5,802 nt of DNA, taken from the IMG/VR virus record IMGVR_UViG_2737471861_000007; one strand, written 5' to 3'. The notes under the pieces are model-generated. The model did not search any database, was not told the origin of the DNA, and saw nothing but the letters and a program-made list of their open reading frames with translations. The stretch comes from a virus (lineage: Duplodnaviria > Heunggongvirae > Uroviricota > Caudoviricetes). The translations under genes and the position numbers were made by a program. Below, in pieces: positions 1 to 5,802 of the stretch (position 1 is its first letter; each line of letters begins with the position of its first letter).

Positions 1-2766
1 CTGGTCGGCGTGCAGGTGGATTCGGAGCAGTTCGGCAGCCAGCAGGTGAGCCGTAATTATCATCTTCGCGGGCGCATTCTGCAGGTGCCGTCGAATTATA
101 ACCCGCAGACGCGGCAATACAGCGGTATCTGGGACGGAACGTTAAAACCGGCATACAGCAACAACATGGCCTGGTGTCTGTGGGATATGCTGACCCACCC
201 GCGCTACGGCATGGGGAAACGTCTTGGTGCGGCAGATGTGGATAAATGGGCGCTGTATGTCATCGGCCAGAATTGCGACCAGTCGGTGCCGGACGGCTTT
301 GGCGGTACGGAGCCGCGCATCACCTGTAACGCTTACCTGACCACACAACGTAAGGCGTGGGATGTGCTCAGTGATTTCTGCTCGGCGATGCGCTGTATGC
401 CGGTATGGAACGGGCAGACGCTGACGTTCGTGCAGGACCGACCGTCGGATAAGGTGTGGACCTATAACCGCAGTAATGTGGTGATGCCGGATGATGGCGC
501 GCCGTTCCGCTACAGCTTCAGCGCCCTGAAAGACCGCCATAATGCCGTTGAGGTGAACTGGATTGACCCGGATAACGGCTGGGAGACGGCAACAGAGCTT
601 GTGGAGGACTCGCAGGCCATTGCCCGTTACGGTCGTAACGTCACGAAGATGGATGCCTTTGGCTGTACCAGCCGGGGGCAGGCACACCGCGCCGGGCTGT
701 GGCTGATTAAAACGGAGCTGCTGGAAACGCAGACGGTGGACTTCAGCGTGGGTGCCGAAGGGCTTCGCCATGTGCCGGGCGATGTCATTGAAATCTGTGA
801 TGATGACTATGCCGGTATCAGCACCGGCGGGCGCGTGCTGGCGGTAAACAGTCAGACCCGGACGCTGACGCTCGACCGTGAAATCACGCTGCCATCCTCC
901 GGCACCACGCTGATAAGCCTGGTTGACGGAAGTGGTAATCCGGTCAGCGTGGAGGTTCAGTCCGTCACCGACGGACTTAAGGTGAAAGTGAACCGGGTTC
1001 CTGACGGTGTTGCTGAATACAGCGTATGGGGGCTGAAGCTGCCGACGCTGCGCCAGCGACTGTTCCGCTGCGTGAGTATCCGTGAGAACGACGACGGCAC
1101 GTATGCCATCACCGCCGTGCAGCATGTGCCGGAAAAAGAGGCCATCGTGGATAACGGGGCGCACTTTGACGGCGACCAGAGCGGCACGGTGAATGGTGTC
1201 ACGCCGCCAGCGGTGCAGCACCTGACTGCCGAAGTCACCGCAGACAGCGGGGAATATCAGGTACTGGCCCGCTGGGACACGCCGAAGGTGGTGAAGGGGG
1301 TGAGCTTTATGCTTCGCCTGACCGTGGCAGCGGATGACGGCAGTGAGCGGCTGGTCAGCACGGCCCGGACGACGGAAACCACATACCGCTTCAGGCAACT
1401 GGCGCTGGGGCGTTACGCGCTGACGGTCCGGGCGGTAAATGCGTGGGGACAGCAGGGCGATCCGGCATCGGTATCGTTCCGGATTGCCGCCCCGGCAGCG
1501 CCGTCGCGGATTGAGCTGACGCCGGGCTATTTTCAGATAACCGCAACGCCGCATCTTGCGGTTTATGACCCGACGGTACAGTTTGAGTTCTGGTTCTCGG
1601 AAACGCGGATTACCGATATCAGGCAGGTTGAAACCACAGCCCGCTACCTTGGCACGGGGCTGTACTGGATAGCCGCCAGTATCAATATCAAACCGGGTCG
1701 TGATTATTACTTTTATATCCGCAGTGTGAACACCGTTGGCAAATCGGCATTCGTGGAGGCCGTCGGTCGGGCGAGCGATGATGCGGAAGGTTACCTGGAT
1801 TTTTTCAAAGGCAAGATAACCGAATCCCATCTCGGTAAAGAGCTGCTGGAAAAAGTTGATCTGACGGAGGATAACGCCAGCAGACTGGATGAGTTTTCGA
1901 AAGAGTGGAAGGACGCCAGTGATAAGTGGAATGCCATGTGGGCTGTTAAAATTGAGCAGACCAAAGACGGCAAACATTATGTCGCGGGTATTGGCCTCAG
2001 CATGGAGGACACGGAGGAAGGCAAACTGAGTCAGTTTCTGGTTGCCGCTAACCGTATCGCATTTATTGACCCGGCAAACGGGAATGAAACGCCGATGTTT
2101 GTGGCGCAGGGCAATCAGATATTCATGAATGACGTGTTCCTGAAACGCCTGACGGCCCCCACCATTACCAGCGGCGGTAATCCTCCGGCATTTTCCCTGA
2201 CGCCTGATGGCCGGCTGACGGCGAAAAATGCCGATATCAGTGGCAGTGTGAATGCGAACTCAGGGACGCTCAACAATGTCACGATAAATGAAAACTGTAC
2301 GATTAAGGGCATGCTGGAGGCGACCCAGGTCAGAGGTGACTTCGTTAAAGCAGTATCAAAATCATTCCCGAAGAAGGCTGGTACGTGGGGTAACACAGAA
2401 ACACCCAACGGGACGGTTACAGTTACCATCAGCGATGATCATAACTTTGACCGTCAAATCATTATTCCGCCCATTATTTTTAACGGTGTCGCATATGACG
2501 ATCCGGGGAGCGGAAATAACCCCGGAGGCACGCGATACACGGGTTATGGTTTTGAAGTTCGCAAAAACGGCGTATTAATCGCATCCAGAGAAACTAAAGG
2601 GGCCATTCCCGGTAGCTACAGTGCGGTTATTGATATGCCGAGTGGCAGGGGAAGCGTCACTCTGGAGTTTAAGGTTTTCCAGAAAGGCAATCAGGGGGCA
2701 GGTAATATCACCGACTGTACGGTGATTGTGACCAAAAAAGCCGCTTCCGGCATCAGTATTCGTTGA
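1..2766 (+). CDS. J: Tail-tip host-specificity protein J (central tail fibre), C-terminal 918 codons; 5'-partial. The frame is open from base 1, so the GTG at 10 used by the ORF track is not the real start. Stop is TGA at 2764-2766.
   Basis: Single 2.7-kb open frame with no internal stops. The translation ([46 protein letters not shown]...[21 protein letters not shown]...[16 protein letters not shown]...) matches the lambda gpJ sequence as I recall it over most of its length. It lies immediately upstream of lom and stf, as in lambda. The middle of the protein (about nt 1195-1780) contains two fibronectin-III-like segments ([10 protein letters not shown]...[17 protein letters not shown]; FQITATP...[14 protein letters not shown]). 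Confidence 0.92.
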
Positions 2767-2786
2767 AATTGTTATAACCCATATAA

Positions 2787-2813
2787 GGGCACCAGAAATG
2801 GTGCCTTTTTTAT
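2787..2813 (+). terminator. Rho-independent terminator downstream of J: 6-bp GC-rich stem GGCACC/GGTGCC with loop AGAAAT, followed by TTTTTTATT
   Basis: Read directly from the sequence: gGGCACCagaaatGGTGCCttttttatt, starting 21 nt after the J stop codon. The short stem makes it a moderate-strength candidate. Confidence 0.6.
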
Positions 2814-2824
2814 TGCAGAAAAGC

Positions 2825-2830
2825 GAGAGG
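2825..2830 (+). promoter_or_regulatory. Shine-Dalgarno sequence (GAGAGG) for lom, 5 nt upstream of the ATG
   Basis: The sequence reads GAGAGGtaattATG, with canonical purine-rich content and spacing. Confidence 0.55.
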
Positions 2831-2835
2831 TAATT

Positions 2836-3435
2836 ATGCGTAAACTTTATGCCGCCATTTTGTCCGCAGCCATCTGTCTGGCCGTATCCGGTGCGCCTGC
2901 ATGGGCGTCTGAACATCAGTCCACGCTGAGCGCGGGCTATCTTCATGCCTCGACGAACGTTTCCGGCAGCGATGATCTGAACGGGATTAACGTGAAATAC
3001 CGTTATGAGTTTACGGACACGCTGGGAATGGTGACGTCATTCAGCTATGCAGGAGACAAGAATCGCCAGCTTACCCGTTACAGCGATACCCGCTGGCATG
3101 AAGATTCCGTGCGTAACCGCTGGTTCAGCGTGATGGCGGGGCCGTCTGTACGCGTGAATGAATGGTTCAGCGCGTATGCGATGGCAGGCGTGGCTTACAG
3201 CCGTGTGTCGACTTTTTCCGGGGATTACCTCCGCGTAACTGACAACAAGGGGAAAACGCACGATGTGCTGACCGGAAGTGATGACGGTCGCCACAGCAAC
3301 ACGTCTCTGGCGTGGGGGGCTGGCGTGCAGTTTAACCCGACCGAATCCGTGGCCGTTGACGTCGCTTATGAAGGCTCCGGCAGCGGTGACTGGCGTACCA
3401 ACAGTTTCATCGTGGGTGTCGGTTATAAATTCTGA
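2836..3435 (+). CDS. lom: Lom outer-membrane protein, Ail/Lom/PagC/OmpX-type beta-barrel family, 199 aa, with a predicted 24-aa signal peptide (2836-2907, cleavage after AWA)
   Basis: Complete ORF with ATG start and an upstream RBS. The N-terminus ([24 protein letters not shown]) is a typical Sec signal peptide. The C-terminus ([26 protein letters not shown]) matches the lambda Lom C-terminus as I recall it and ends in the aromatic residue typical of outer-membrane beta-barrels. Other motifs ([21 protein letters not shown]) fit the Ail/Lom family. The position between J and stf is the classical lambda lom locus. Confidence 0.92.
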
Positions 3436-3461
3436 TTAGCCAGGTAACACAGTGTTATGAC

Positions 3462-3489
3462 AGCCCGCCGTTTCAGGCGGGCTTTTTTG
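3462..3489 (+). terminator. Rho-independent terminator downstream of lom: 8-bp stem AGCCCGCC/GGCGGGCT with loop GTTTCA, followed by TTTTTTG
   Basis: Read directly from the sequence: AGCCCGCCgtttcaGGCGGGCTtttttt, beginning 27 nt after the lom stop codon and ending about 10 nt before the stf start. Perfect GC-rich stem followed by a T-tract. Confidence 0.7.
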
Positions 3490-3499
3490 TGGGGTGAAT

Positions 3500-5802
3500 A
3501 TGGCAGTAAAGATTTCAGGTGTACTGAAAGACGGCACAGGAAAACCGGTACAGAACTGCACAATCCAGCTGAAAGCAAAACGTAACAGTACCACTGTGGT
3601 GGTGAACACGCTGGCCTCAGAAAATCCGGATGAAGCCGGGCGTTACAGCATGGACGTTGAGTACGGTCAGTACAGCGTTATTCTGTTGGTGGAGGGATTC
3701 CCGCCGTCACATGCCGGGACCATCACCGTGTATGAAGATTCTCAACCCGGTACGCTGAATGATTTTCTCGGTGCCATGACGGAGGATGATGCCCGTCCGG
3801 AGGCACTGCGCCGTTTTGAACTGATGGTGGAAGAGGTGGCGCGTAACGCGTCCGCGGTGGCACAGAACACAGCAGCCGCGAAGAAGTCAGCCAGCGATGC
3901 CAGCACATCAGCCCGTGAGGCGGCAACCCATGCGACTGATGCTGCAGGCTCAGCACGCGCAGCCAGCACGTCAGCCGGACAGGCCGCGTCGTCGGCTCAG
4001 TCAGCGTCTTCCAGCGCAGGAACGGCATCAGCAAAGGCCACTGAAGCATCAAAAAGTGCTGCCGCTGCAGAGTCCTCAAAAAGCGCGGCGGCTACCAGTG
4101 CCGGTGCAGCGAAAACGTCAGAAACGAATGCGGCAGCGTCACAACAATCAGCCGCCACGTCTGCATCCACCGCGACCTCGAAAGCGTCAGAAGCTGCCAC
4201 GTCAGCCAGGGATGCGGCGGTCTCAAAAGAGGCGGCAAAATCATCAGAAACGAGCGCAGCCTCGAGCGCCGGTAGCGCAGCTTCCTCGGCAACGGCGGCA
4301 GGAAATTCCGCGAAGGCGGCAAAAACGTCCGAGACGAACGCTAAGTCTTCTGAAACGGCAGCGGGACAGAGTGCCTCAGCTGCGGCAGGCTCAAAAACAG
4401 CGGCTGCGTCGTCTGCCAGTGCAGCGTCAACAAGTGCCGGGCAGGCCTCAGCCAGTGCCACCGCCGCCGGAAAATCGGCAGAAAGCGCCGCATCGTCCGC
4501 TTCAACAGCCACAACGAAGGCTGGCGAAGCCACTGAACAGGCCAGTGCAGCAGCGAGGTCTGCTTCCGCAGCGAAGACATCCGAGACGAACGCGAAAGCG
4601 TCGGAAACCAGTGCAGAATCCTCAAAAATGGCAGCCGCATCGTCCGCCAGTTCGGCGGCGTCATCGGCATCATCTGCGTCTGCTTCAAAAGATGAGGCGA
4701 CCAGACAGGCGTCAGCAGCGAGGGGCAGCGCCACGACGGCATCCACGAAGGCGACAGAGGCTGCTGGCAGTGCGGCAGCGGCAGCACAGAGCAAAAGTAC
4801 GGCAGAATCCGCAGCAACGCGCGCTGAGACAGCGGCAAAACGGGCAGAGGATATTGCATCCGCCGTGGCGCTTGAGGATGCGAGCACGACGAAAAAGGGG
4901 ATAGTCCAGCTAAGCAGCGCGACTAACAGCACTTCCGAGTCACAGGCGGCAACGCCAAAAGCCGTTAAGGCCGCGTATGACCTGGCTAACGGGAAATACA
5001 CCGCACAGGATGCAACGACAGCACAGAAAGGGATAGTTCAGCTCAGCAGCGCGACCAACAGCACATCTGAAATGCTGGCGGCAACGCCAAAGTCGGTAAA
5101 GGCAGCCTATGACCTTGCTAACGGGAAATATACTGCTCAGGACGCTACGACAGCACAAAAAGGAATTGTCCAGCTCAGTAGTGCAACCAACAGCGCATCT
5201 GAAACGCTTGCCGCGACACCGAAAGCAGTGAAAGCAGCTAATGATAATGCGAATGGTCGGGTACCTTCTGCCCGTAAGGTGAATGGTAAGGCGCTTTCAG
5301 CGGATATAACACTGACGCCGAAAGATATTGGTACGCTTAACTCAACAACAATGTCCTTCAGCGGTGGTGCTGGTTGGTTCAAATTAGCAACGGTAACCAT
5401 GCCACAGGCGAGTTCTGTTGTTTCAATTACGTTGATTGGTGGCGCGGGATTTAACGTGGGGTCACCTCAACAGGCAGGTATATCTGAACTTGTTTTGCGT
5501 GCAGGTAATGGTAATCCGAAGGGGATTACTGGTGCTTTATGGCAGCGCACATCGACAGGGTTTACAAATTTTGCCTGGGTCAATACATCTGGTGATACTT
5601 ACGATATTTACGTTGCAATCGGAAATTATGCGACTGGTGTAAATATTCAATGGGATTATACCAGTAATGCCAGCGTGACTATTCATACGTCACCAGCATA
5701 TTCTGCTAATAAGCCGGAAGGGTTAACGGACGGTACAGTTTATTCACTCTATACGCCATCAGAGCAGTTTTATCCGCCTGGCGCACCAATCCCGTGGCCA
5801 TC
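3500..5802 (+). CDS. stf: Side tail fibre protein Stf, N-terminal 767 codons; 3'-partial. The frame stays open to the window edge, which is why it is absent from the ORF track.
   Basis: ATG at 3500-3502 preceded by a G-rich SD (GTGGGG). I translated the frame by hand and found it open to 5802. The N-terminus (MAVKISGVLKDGTGKPVQNCTIQLKA...RYSMDVEYGQYSVIL...FPPSHAGTITVYEDSQPGTLNDFL...) matches lambda Stf (orf-401) as I recall it. This is followed by an Ala/Ser/Thr-rich shaft, a 'KGIVQLSSATNSTSE..AATPKAVK' fibre repeat, and the conserved 'FYPPGAPIPWP' motif at the window end. Confidence 0.9.
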   Translation, partial: MAVKISGVLKDGTGKPVQNCTIQLKAKRNSTTVVVNTLASENPDEAGRYSMDVEYGQYSVILLVEGFPPSHAGTITVYEDSQPGTLNDFLGAMTEDDARPEALRRFELMVEEVARNASAVAQNTAAAKKSASDASTSAREAATHATDAAGSARAASTSAGQAASSAQSASSSAGTASAKATEASKSAAAAESSKSAAATSAGAAKTSETNAAASQQSAATSASTATSKASEAATSARDAAVSKEAAKSSETSAASSAGSAASSATAAGNSAKAAKTSETNAKSSETAAGQSASAAAGSKTAAASSASAASTSAGQASASATAAGKSAESAASSASTATTKAGEATEQASAAARSASAAKTSETNAKASETSAESSKMAAASSASSAASSASSASASKDEATRQASAARGSATTASTKATEAAGSAAAAAQSKSTAESAATRAETAAKRAEDIASAVALEDASTTKKGIVQLSSATNSTSESQAATPKAVKAAYDLANGKYTAQDATTAQKGIVQLSSATNSTSEMLAATPKSVKAAYDLANGKYTAQDATTAQKGIVQLSSATNSASETLAATPKAVKAANDNANGRVPSARKVNGKALSADITLTPKDIGTLNSTTMSFSGGAGWFKLATVTMPQASSVVSITLIGGAGFNVGSPQQAGISELVLRAGNGNPKGITGALWQRTSTGFTNFAWVNTSGDTYDIYVAIGNYATGVNIQWDYTSNASVTIHTSPAYSANKPEGLTDGTVYSLYTPSEQFYPPGAPIPWP
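3850..4876 (+). repeat. Low-complexity Ala/Ser/Thr/Lys/Glu-rich shaft region of Stf, built from long imperfect direct repeats that include three copies of a roughly 27-nt core (4106-4132, 4315-4341, 4568-4594) encoding AAKTSETNA
   Basis: Seen in the sequence: gcagcgaaaacgtcagaaacgaatgcg, gcggcaaaaacgtccgagacgaacgct and gcagcgaagacatccgagacgaacgcg, each followed by Ser/Ala-rich stretches (SAGQASAS, ASSASAAS). The approximate period between copies is 210-250 nt. Confidence 0.65.
4877..5245 (+). repeat. Three tandem in-frame copies of a 132-nt (44-aa) phage tail-fibre repeat in Stf, at 4877-5008, 5009-5140 and 5141 to about 5245 (third copy diverges at its end)
   Basis: Translations of the three copies: DASTTKKGIVQLSSATNSTSESQAATPKAVKAAYDLANGKYTAQ; DATTAQKGIVQLSSATNSTSEMLAATPKSVKAAYDLANGKYTAQ; DATTAQKGIVQLSSATNSASETLAATPKAVKAANDNANGR... 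The copies differ mainly at synonymous positions (for example ata gtc cag cta / ata gtt cag ctc / att gtc cag ctc). Confidence 0.85.

Follow-up and report, generated by a model that had tools for sequence, protein, structure and literature searches.

The lom gene between two predicted terminator hairpins in the J–stf region of a phage 434-like lambdoid phage or prophage

Results

Organization of the J–lom–stf junction

The window, that is, the whole stretch of 5,802 nucleotides analysed here, spans the junction at which a phage 434-like lambdoid phage or prophage carries lom between J and stf (Table 1). The truncated J product matched the Pfam families Phage-tail_3, Ig_J, Ig_J_second, Phage_Tail_Tip, and Ig_GpJ_C, and its receptor-binding module (about 2296–2766) is of the phage 434 type. 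Compared with phage 434, window positions 1636–3615 showed at least 90% identity in nearly every 60-nt bin, with the lowest bins at 75–89%. The truncated stf product matched phage_tail_N (E = 5.8e-72) and, three times, Phage_fiber_2. The position of lom between these two genes is already known and belongs to textbook lambda biology, and terminators are annotated in deposited phage genomes: the records of phage 434 and Ayreon already mark both hairpins, here called T1 and T2, as 'terminator'. Other open reading frames at the junction (2575–2946, 3037–3294, 3423–3578, and 3436–3609 on the minus strand; 3457–3585 on the plus strand) had no Pfam match and were dismissed as spurious. Moreover, an Rfam scan returned only sub-threshold chance matches, one of T2 to Trp_leader (E = 0.48) and one, within stf, to isrG in antisense.

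Table 1. Features of the J–lom–stf junction (window coordinates).
Feature	Position	Strand	Description
J, 3' 2.7 kb	1–2766	+	Tail-tip / host-specificity gene; 5' end lies outside the window; stop TGA 2764–2766
T1	2785–2814	+	Stem 2785–2794/2799–2808; loop GAAA 2795–2798; T-run 2806–2811, then ATT
Presence/absence segment	2815 to about 3487	+	About 673 bp; comprises lom, its leader and ribosome-binding site, and T2
lom Shine–Dalgarno GAGAGG	2825–2830	+	5 nt before the ATG; read from the sequence
lom	2836–3435	+	ATG start; 199-aa Ail/Lom-family eight-stranded outer-membrane beta-barrel precursor
Lom predicted signal peptide	2836–2907	+	Residues 1–24, ending ...APAWA and followed by SE; read by eye from the translation
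Palindrome TAACAC-A-GTGTTA	3445–3457		Perfect, 13 bp; lom–stf spacer; read from the sequence
T2	3462–3488	+	Stem 3462–3469/3476–3483; loop GTTTCA; six T 3483–3488
stf ribosome-binding site GGGGTGA	3491–3497	+	Directly after T2
stf, 5' 2.3 kb	3500–5802	+	Side tail fibre gene; 3' end lies outside the window

Lom belongs to the Ail/Lom/OmpX beta-barrel family

Profile and structure matches placed the lom product in the Ail/Lom/OmpX beta-barrel family, as the original prediction had proposed. The match to Pfam Ail_Lom (PF06316) covered positions 1–199 of 199 (E = 1.1e-118; bit score 394.6, cut-off 23), and the protein also matched phrog_108, 'Lom outer membrane protein' (8.2e-108). Among PDB entries, it matched lambda Lom (9wso_C, 5e-48) as well as OmpX (1orm/2m06) and Ail (3qra), the latter two at 1e-18 to 1e-19; its identity to lambda Lom was 46%. 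In addition, the C-terminus (...GYKF, with a terminal, aromatic Phe) was read by eye from the translation, and the features expected of a small outer-membrane beta-barrel homologous to OmpX, Ail, and Lom were present, the signal peptide as read by eye. We infer that Lom is an outer-membrane protein with a function in the host cell and no part in the virion. Lambda does not need lom to form plaques (PMC10695390).

The association with serum resistance, which had also been put forward, stood in part: it applies at the level of the family, whereas Lom scored 111.9 bits against a cut-off of 258 for the Rck/PagC-type complement-resistance equivalog (NCBIfam NF011777) and 99.5 bits against a cut-off of 176 for the OmpX equivalog (NCBIfam NF006917). 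Serum-resistance and invasion functions are therefore not simply transferable to this protein. Upstream of the start codon, the GAGAGG Shine–Dalgarno sequence was invariant in all 80 related viral-contig loci (L008–L087), in 434, and in Ayreon, and it is conserved in lambda.

T1 and T2 have the features of intrinsic terminators

T1 and T2 were the two best terminator-like matches of the window scan. When a strict definition was applied to both strands (perfect stem of at least 7 bp, ΔG of −10 or lower, and at least five T in the next 7 nt), they were the only two loci found; together with the full-length lom match, this result bears out the claim that lom lies between two candidate intrinsic terminators. 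Dinucleotide shuffles scanned with the same definition yielded a mean of 0.135 sites, and two or more sites were present in 1.5% of shuffles. Both hairpins lie on the coding (+) strand and occupy the only two intergenic gaps of the window. The spacers, previously put at 10–20 nt, were roughly of that size: 18 nt from the J stop to T1, 24 nt from the T1 T-run to the lom ATG (21 nt when the trailing ATT is counted), 26 nt from the lom stop to T2, and 11 nt from the T2 T-run to the stf ATG. The end of T2 had been set at 3489 and was corrected to 3488, the last position of its T-run. Within the lom–stf spacer, the 13-bp palindrome listed in Table 1 was invariant in all related loci, lambda included.

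Free-energy scoring, which had been suggested as a check on the terminators, gave a ΔG of −15.6 kcal/mol for the T1 hairpin and −17.6 kcal/mol for the T2 stem. For T1, the z-score was −4.5, none of 200 shuffles folded as well, and the hairpin persisted when a 171-nt stretch was folded. Furthermore, double compensatory changes were found at two of the eight T1 stem pairs (GC exchanged with AU, and CG with UA), 94% of cells were paired, and the observed value was reached in 8 of 500 shuffles. T2 is nearly invariant across the related loci and is therefore uninformative on compensatory change, the lambda variant excepted, in which the hairpin is kept and the inner pairs and loop are altered. Both elements combine a GC-rich stem with a T-run, follow a stop codon, and are more stable than expected by chance. 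Judged by these sequence features, T1 and T2 appear to behave like real intrinsic terminators, and transcription is predicted to terminate at them.

The lom segment is present or absent downstream of T1

When the window was aligned to empty sites, left homology stopped at ...TTTTTTATT and right homology restarted at TGTGGRGTGAATATG, placing the junctions at 2814/2815 and about 3487/3488. The segment ends are ambiguous by a few T because the junctions sit in T-runs. The lom-less phages ev207, 1H12, and ev017 carried the exact empty site, J–T1–stf, indicating that the segment of about 673 bp is a true presence/absence cassette, that is, extra DNA with discrete junctions that is absent from syntenic relatives. 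In lom-less phages, the same stf ribosome-binding site and start were found directly after T1. Beyond the T-runs, no transposon-like ends, target duplications, or direct or inverted repeats flanking the cassette were detected. Among 5,426 complete E. coli genomes, the occupied site was found in 4,084 and the empty J–T1–stf site in 1,145. Roughly three in four of these genomes therefore carry the cassette, and many copies per genome are frequent. These observations support the view of lom as a dispensable add-on.

The two hairpins differ in their relation to this segment. T1 was kept in ev207, 1H12, and ev017. Because T1 occurs without lom, it is assigned, on its predicted structure, as the resident intrinsic terminator of J, outside the lom insert and no part of the cassette. 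T2 is lom's own terminator, lying within the indel segment downstream of the lom stop, and of the two only T2 travels with lom. The description of lom as a terminator-flanked cassette consequently does not hold for the two hairpins as one unit. Two related loci that had been considered as alternative left cassette boundaries (L063 and L039) were rejected, as they represent IS insertions into T1 or the leader.

Composition of lom and its status as a moron

The GC content of lom (0.563) was close to that of J (0.563) and stf (0.558), its GC3 (0.638) fell within the range of neighbouring chunks, and its synonymous-codon distance was 0.157 against a null of 0.167 ± 0.035. Compared with J and stf, lom gave no compositional sign of foreign origin in GC, GC3, or codon usage. 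The original prediction had named such a lack of distinction from the flanking tail genes among the outcomes that would count against it, and this is the outcome obtained.

Lom has been listed among moron-encoded proteins (PMC3594210). The moron definition of Juhala et al., 2000, as summarised by Cumby et al., 2012, counts among its criteria a promoter of the element's own and a GC content that departs from that of the neighbours (PMC3594210). The word is apt for the window's lom in that the gene is a dispensable presence/absence cassette with its own terminator, T2, but not in that no promoter was found and the composition resembles that of the neighbours. Although lom is routinely placed under the classical moron definition, these results show that it does not satisfy that definition in full. 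They add the exact anatomy of the locus: the upstream terminator is J's, and the indel unit consists of the ribosome-binding site, lom, and T2, joined at T-runs and carrying no recognisable promoter or compositional signature.

Search for a sigma-70 promoter of lom

A consensus scan of the 69-nt J–lom spacer revealed no convincing sigma-70 promoter, in agreement with the earlier reading of this spacer. As to the hexamers named at that time, TATAAG does lie at 2782–2787, but TTGAAA was found at 2763–2768 instead of 2764–2769, and the two are 13 nt apart. A sigma-70 weight-matrix scan of the window and 39 distinct upstream variants, the scores of which are approximate, likewise gave no site above background ahead of lom; the 99.9th percentile of the window was 7.0 bits, and its best-scoring sites lay elsewhere. 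Within the insert, where 21 nt precede the ATG, no sigma-70 promoter was found in silico, a result that leaves room for promoters of a non-sigma-70 or activator-dependent kind. No more than about 110 nt, made up of the last J codons, the spacer, T1, and the leader, is constantly linked to the 5' side of lom, and this stretch too held no convincing sigma-70 promoter.

Several candidate sites were rejected. Promoter-like sites at −252 to −261 in three different J modules share their position, and this conservation was not accepted as evidence because the sites overlie a conserved protein motif, (L/F)xV(R/T)(K/R)NGxxI, that a lom-less phage shares. For an extended −10-like element, TGTTATAAC (2770–2778), the TG is not maintained across the other variants, and transcription beginning from it would include the whole of T1. 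TTTATT-17-AATTAT (2809–2837) cannot serve lom because its −10 overlaps the ATG.

It had further been concluded that lom either takes its promoter from within the 3' end of J or depends on read-through. Two points tell against the first of these. A transcript from there would meet T1 before lom. Moreover, the locus is a mosaic: of 76 related loci whose lom is more than 90% identical to that of the window, about half carry a non-homologous version of the J receptor-binding module (about 2296–2775). As the J module is swapped beside a near-identical lom, a J-internal promoter cannot be lom's constant partner.

The lambda prophage expresses lom (PMC7067206; PMC1151598), and the evidence from lambda lysogens is cited there from Reeve and Shaw, 1979 and Barondess and Beckwith, 1990. 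In phi24B lysogens, RNA-seq indicated constitutive lom expression, uncoupled from phage regulation and the lytic network (PMC4651098). One microarray study left lom undetected in a lambda lysogen and noted that little is known of its promoter (PMC2147009). No mapped lom promoter or transcription start was found in the literature searched.

Discussion

Proposed organization and alternative explanations

We consider it very likely that lom, its own ribosome-binding site, and T2 form an accessory segment of about 673 bp just downstream of T1, which is J's terminator with or without lom. The segment sits in the T-run/spacer right after T1, and T1 would close J in all relatives. During lytic growth, by analogy with lambda, Q-modified RNA polymerase would pass both T1 and T2 and carry J, lom, and stf on one late transcript. 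That Q-modified polymerase reads through terminators is well established for lambda, and read-through of T1 is also implied because T1 stands between J and stf in lom-less phages. In the prophage, T1 may halt stray transcription out of the tail genes and T2 may keep lom transcripts from entering stf–tfa. If the window's lom allele is expressed in the lysogen as its relatives are, a weak, as yet unmapped promoter would be needed.

The polymorphism itself could reflect deletion, with J–T1–lom–T2–stf as the ancestral state, lom-less junctions arising by deletion between the T-runs, and lom not being added DNA. We regard this as conceivable but doubtful. Both junctions lie in T-runs able to support microhomology-mediated deletion, and deletion does occur at this locus, as seen in phage D2, where J is fused to the last ~100 nt of lom; the occupied state is also commoner than the empty one, and the composition gives no sign of foreign origin. 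However, at the empty sites the T1 tail is complete, with TTTTTTATTT preceding GTGG, and the empty-site lineage has an stf 5' end that has itself diverged from the window's, indicating that these sites are not recent deletions of the window's allele. Related lom genes in unrelated phage contexts further indicate that the gene moves. From the junctions alone, insertion and deletion between T-runs are not separable. A different doubt concerns the hairpins, which might primarily be recombination-joint 'linker' sequences, or 3' elements that stabilise or process the late mRNA, and not terminators. Mosaic joints do coincide with them: the J-module variants, and lambda relative to the window, regain homology at T1 or its T-run, and half-and-half recombinant T1 hairpins were found in two related loci (L017 and L085). 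Nevertheless, this reading seems highly improbable to us. A GC-rich stem followed by six T, strand specificity, the location after stop codons, the compensatory substitutions in T1, and the unrelated hairpin and T-run that lambda has in its place point to selection for terminator architecture. The linker and terminator roles are compatible and not mutually exclusive.

For an accessory segment lying behind J's terminator, expression in the lysogen has to be accounted for. A classical self-contained moron would have its own promoter inside the J 3' end and an independent lysogen transcript that runs through or past T1 and ends at T2. The reported lysogen expression of lambda and phi24B lom fits this arrangement, AT content within J is highest at its 3' end (GC 0.45–0.50), and weak promoter-like sites occur there at 2447 (TTGACC-19-CATTAT) and 2552 (TTGAAG-16-ATTAAT). 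It nonetheless appears unlikely: these sites score no better than background (99.9th percentile 7.0 bits), their positional conservation is that of the protein motif V-R-K-N-G-x-x-I, also found in lom-less phages, the transcript must cross T1 (ΔG −15.6, six T) before lom, and about half of the loci with a lom more than 90% identical to the window's have a non-homologous J receptor-binding module. We are similarly disinclined to believe that lom lacks a dedicated promoter altogether and is transcribed essentially only in the Q-dependent late operon, with the signal from lysogen cultures due to spontaneous induction or leak-through at T1. Such an arrangement would agree with the absence of a promoter in the scans, the mere 21–24 nt from T1 to the ATG, the composition shared with the tail genes, and the negative lysogen array study (PMC2147009), but it conflicts with the lambda evidence as cited from Reeve and Shaw, 1979 and Barondess and Beckwith, 1990, and with the phi24B lysogen RNA-seq, in which expression was uncoupled from the lytic network (PMC4651098). 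T2 after lom would also be hard to explain if lom were never transcribed apart from stf, although T2 could be inherited.

Quite remote, in our estimation, is a role for T1 as more than an insulator. A weak promoter overlapping its left arm, for example TTCGTT-17-TATAAG (2759–2787), could possibly start the lom transcript in the T1 loop; the mRNA would then lack the T1 5' arm and escape the terminator that blocks all upstream transcription. Alternatively, weak promoters in the AT-rich J 3' end might yield a short RNA ending at T1, by analogy with Hfq-binding 3'-end sRNAs, and leak-through at T1 could possibly set lom expression. Either version, if true, would explain lysogen expression of a promoterless cassette.

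Comparison with known systems

The closest relatives of the locus are phage 434 (OL657226.1, 18940–19652) and Ayreon (MF807953.1), with about 96% DNA identity over window positions 2600–3700. Both share the J receptor-binding type, T1, T2, and the lom allele (95.5% at the amino acid level), and they differ from the window by point differences only, such as one base in the T2 loop. In its stf, the window has the long type, as in Ayreon, whereas 434 has the short type.

Lambda lom (NC_001416.1, 18965–19585) occupies the same place, between J and stf (orf-401), behind the same leader and ribosome-binding site, and its 3' end, T2, and the stf start are nearly identical to those of the window. A hairpin with a T-run is present at both equivalent positions, after J included. 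The lambda T1 hairpin, however, is unrelated in sequence to that of the window and weaker (6 bp, ΔG −9.7), the J receptor-binding domain is different, and the two Lom proteins share less than half of their residues (46%). The lambda protein has been reported as lysogen-expressed, located in the outer membrane, and non-essential (PMC7067206; PMC1151598; PMC10695390).

Like the classical morons as defined for gene 15 of HK97, the window's lom is an extra, dispensable gene between essential or structural tail genes, has its own downstream terminator, is missing from relatives that are otherwise syntenic, and codes for a membrane protein from which the lysogen would benefit. In contrast to those morons, no promoter was found for it, its GC content is like that of its neighbours, and the upstream terminator lies outside the element. 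The Ail, OmpX, Rck, and PagC barrels belong to the same Pfam family or clan as Lom, with homology to OmpX and Ail at 1e-18 to 1e-19, although Lom falls below the Rck-type and OmpX equivalog cut-offs (112 against 258 bits and 99.5 against 176 bits). Finally, in the short-tailed Stx phages VT2-Sakai and phi24B, lom lies after tail-fibre accessory genes and not between J and stf. The VT2-Sakai gene (NC_000902.1, 43734–44468) encodes a protein 41% identical to that of the window and has no DNA homology to it, yet it likewise carries a hairpin and T-run about 24 nt past its stop, and lom of the phi24B lysogen is reported to be constitutive (PMC4651098).

Results

The window carries three genes, all on the plus strand. 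The open reading frame between J and stf matches the Pfam family Ail_Lom (PF06316) from end to end (E = 1.1e-118), with a further match to PHROG 108, 'Lom outer membrane protein'. In addition, its product is homologous to the lambda Lom structure, chain 9wso_C (5e-48), and to the OmpX and Ail barrels (1e-18 to 1e-19), bearing out the original assignment of Lom to an Ail/OmpX-type family. PDB 9wso is a multi-chain entry whose chain C is the solved structure of the lambda 'Outer membrane protein lom'; no paper on this entry was found in the literature collection searched. The window Lom is ~95.5% identical to that of phage 434 but only 46% identical to that of lambda. The serum resistance cited in the original prediction is a family-level association; the protein itself falls short of the Rck and OmpX equivalog cut-offs.

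Features of the J–lom–stf junction
Feature	Position	Strand	Description
J	ends 2766	+	tail-tip gene, 3' 2.7 kb
T1	stem 2785-2808; T-run 2806-2811	+	AAGGGCACCA-GAAA-TGGTGCCTTT, then more T
lom	2836-3435	+	199 codons; Ail_Lom (PF06316)
T2	stem 3462-3483	+	AGCCCGCC-GTTTCA-GGCGGGCT, then TTTTT
stf	starts 3500	+	side tail fibre gene, 5' 2.3 kb
Presence/absence unit	~2815-3487		21-nt leader with RBS GAGAGG, lom, 26-nt spacer and T2

T1 and T2, each a hairpin followed by a T-run, were the top two matches of the terminator scan and the sole loci on either strand under a stricter definition, for which dinucleotide shuffles gave a mean of 0.135 sites and at least two sites in 1.5% of cases. The T1 hairpin has a dG of -15.6 kcal/mol (z = -4.5), with equally good folding in 0 of 200 shuffles, and it was still the dominant structure in a 171-nt fold; the T2 stem has a dG of -17.6. 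Both lie on the coding strand and occupy the only two intergenic gaps, T1 lying 18 nt after the J stop codon and 21–24 nt before the lom ATG, and T2 lying 26 nt after the lom stop codon and 11 nt before the stf ATG. The two hairpin and T-run sites described in the original prediction are real. The spacer between the lom stop codon and T2 also holds a perfect 13-bp palindrome (TAACAC-A-GTGTTA, 3445-3457) that shows no variation in any of the related loci examined, lambda included; this invariance alone proves nothing, because the whole lom–T2 spacer is equally conserved.

Both terminators are structurally conserved. In a set of 80 viral contigs with a Lom 95–98% identical to that of the window, together with reference phages, T1 is present in several sequence variants, 94% of the alignment cells are paired, and two stem positions show double-sided changes (G-C<->A-U and C-G<->U-A), a covariation reached by only 8 of 500 shuffles. 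T2 is nearly invariant among related loci. At the T1 position lambda has an unrelated, weaker hairpin with a T-run (CGTCCG-GGAA-CGGGCG TTTTATT, dG -9.7), and it retains a hairpin at T2, where the inner pairs and the loop are altered. Other annotators had already marked both sites 'terminator' in the phage 434 and Ayreon records.

Half-and-half recombinant T1 hairpins, whose stems contain one or two mismatched pairs, were found among the related viral contigs (L017 1142-1171 and L085 1450-1479). The recombinant stems read GGGCGCC...GACGCC and GGGCACC...GACGCC, suggesting recombination breakpoints inside the T1 loop. In L021 (1450-1479) the loop is the reverse complement, TTTC and not GAAA. Moreover, a transposase-like ORF ends within the J–lom spacer of two viral contigs (L063 54-1480 and L039 95-1460). 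In L063 this ORF adjoins an end reading ...GCACGCTTAC and abuts GAAAAGCGAGAGG, and T1 is lost; by its resemblance to IS66 ends, this insertion is putatively IS66-like. In L039 the transposase-like insertion replaces the left arm of T1. Both insertions could alter lom transcription.

Megablast matches in the 'spread' view included lambdoid phages with the end of J adjoining the start of stf. In the lom-less relatives ev207, 1H12 and ev017, the order is J stop codon, a spacer of ~18 nt, a T1-type hairpin, TTTTTTATTT and the stf start GTGGAGTGAATATG. In the alignment of the window with these empty sites, homology on the left runs through TTTTTTATT to 2814 and restarts on the right at TGTGGGGTGAATATG, from ~3488, limits that define a presence/absence unit of ~673 bp. 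T1, found with or without lom, belongs to J as its terminator and lies outside the lom element. Both states of the site are common: of 5,426 complete E. coli genomes, 4,084 have the occupied site, at up to 14 matching places per genome, and 1,145 have a contiguous empty site.

No direct or inverted repeats besides the T-runs flank the unit. The lom polymorphism may stem from an insertion or from a deletion between the T-runs, and the junctions do not tell the two apart. A clear deletion derivative does occur in phage D2, where J is fused to the last ~100 nt of lom. In this record (OM475427.1, 1103-1312), which contains N bases, a J-like frame enters the 3'-terminal ~100 nt of a lambda-type lom, beyond which come T2 and stf; the annotation calls the fused frame a second 'host specificity protein J'. 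In VT2-Sakai, the terminator after a distant lom (L088 1993-2021) ends in TTTTTTATTGC, an 11-mer that in the window (2806-2816) also follows the T1 stem, straddling the left end of the lom insert; the match may be fortuitous or may be a remnant of the way in which lom cassettes join.

Consensus and weight-matrix scans found no sigma-70 site above background in the J–lom spacer, in agreement with the original prediction, or in the 3'-terminal 500 nt of J. One hexamer of the original prediction, TATAAG, lies at 2782-2787 as described, but TTGAAA lies at 2763-2768, one base off, so that the two are 13 nt apart. The accompanying suggestion of a lom promoter inside J is doubtful, because any transcript started in J would meet T1 ahead of lom and because the J receptor-binding module is often replaced beside a near-identical lom. 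When 76 related loci with lom >90% identical to that of the window were mapped for mosaicism, this module (~2296-2775) proved to be replaced in about half by versions that do not align as DNA and have ~40–50% protein identity. Homology is regained no earlier than the last J codons or T1, and therefore the constant 5' flank of lom is at most ~110 nt, mostly T1. Promoter-like sites at -252 to -261 in three J module types were rejected as evidence, since all overlie the conserved protein motif V-R-K-N-G-x-x-I, which is present also in a lom-less phage.

The C-terminal receptor-binding module of J (2296-2775 against the 80 related loci, L008–L087) is a swap unit and is of the phage 434 type in the window; a second J swap unit lies at ~1636-2115. 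In stf, a long, low-complexity stretch rich in Ala, Ser and Thr (3850-4900; AT skew ~0.4, GC2 0.79) yields long spurious ORFs in other frames and on the opposite strand (335 aa on plus, 334 aa on minus), and 3' of it 2.4 tandem copies of a 132-nt unit (4893-5205) correspond to three Phage_fiber_2 repeats.

Discussion

The description of lom as a moron stands in part. The cassette is extra DNA with discrete junctions and its own downstream terminator (T2), but it has neither a recognisable promoter of its own, with only 21 nt of insert ahead of the ATG, nor a deviant composition. The GC content is 0.563 for lom, 0.563 for J and 0.558 for stf, and lom GC3 is inside the range of its neighbours. 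Furthermore, the synonymous-codon distance of lom to J and stf is 0.157, against 0.167 ± 0.035 for a null of equal-sized chunks of J and stf, 58% of which are at least as distant. A lom indistinguishable from J and stf in composition was one of two outcomes that the original prediction had counted against itself; this result is not treated as decisive, since the empty sites attest an indel directly. The refinements added here are that T1 belongs to J and that the cassette consists of the RBS, lom and T2, without a recognisable promoter or compositional signature, and the routine 'moron' label is therefore only partly accurate.

Lambda lysogens are reported to express lom (PMC7067206, PMC1151598), and its expression is reported as constitutive in phi24B lysogens (PMC4651098). 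It was undetected in one array study, and its promoter has been described as little known (PMC2147009). lom is non-essential for plaque formation (PMC10695390), and Lom has been listed with the moron-encoded proteins aiding adhesion (PMC3594210).

Late transcription in lambda is carried out by Q-modified polymerase from pR'. By analogy, this polymerase would read past T1 and T2, and J, lom and stf would be co-transcribed late. Even in phages without lom, T1 separates J from stf, which independently implies that late transcription must get past T1 if stf is to be made. In the prophage, T1 may shield lom and stf from upstream transcription, and T2 may keep lom transcripts from entering stf.

Lambda and the window have three stretches in common: the leader, which starts at the T1 T-run and reaches into the first lom codons, the last ~100 nt of lom, and T2 with the stf start (88–95% identity), whereas protein identity in the lom body is only 46%. 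Common flanks around a diverged body suggest that the terminators and their flanks serve as conserved linkers for module exchange, which the recombinant T1 hairpins of L017 and L085 fit. Around lom, phages ev099, cdtI, 434 and Ayreon are 96–97.5% identical to the window DNA, and, among the 5,426 complete E. coli genomes, the top full-length match reaches 96.7%. Each module is common, yet no complete genome in the collection exceeds this value over the whole window, which is therefore a mosaic combination unsampled before rather than new sequence. The junction itself, with both terminators already annotated in public records, is the known lambdoid J–lom–stf junction, essentially the phage 434 allele.
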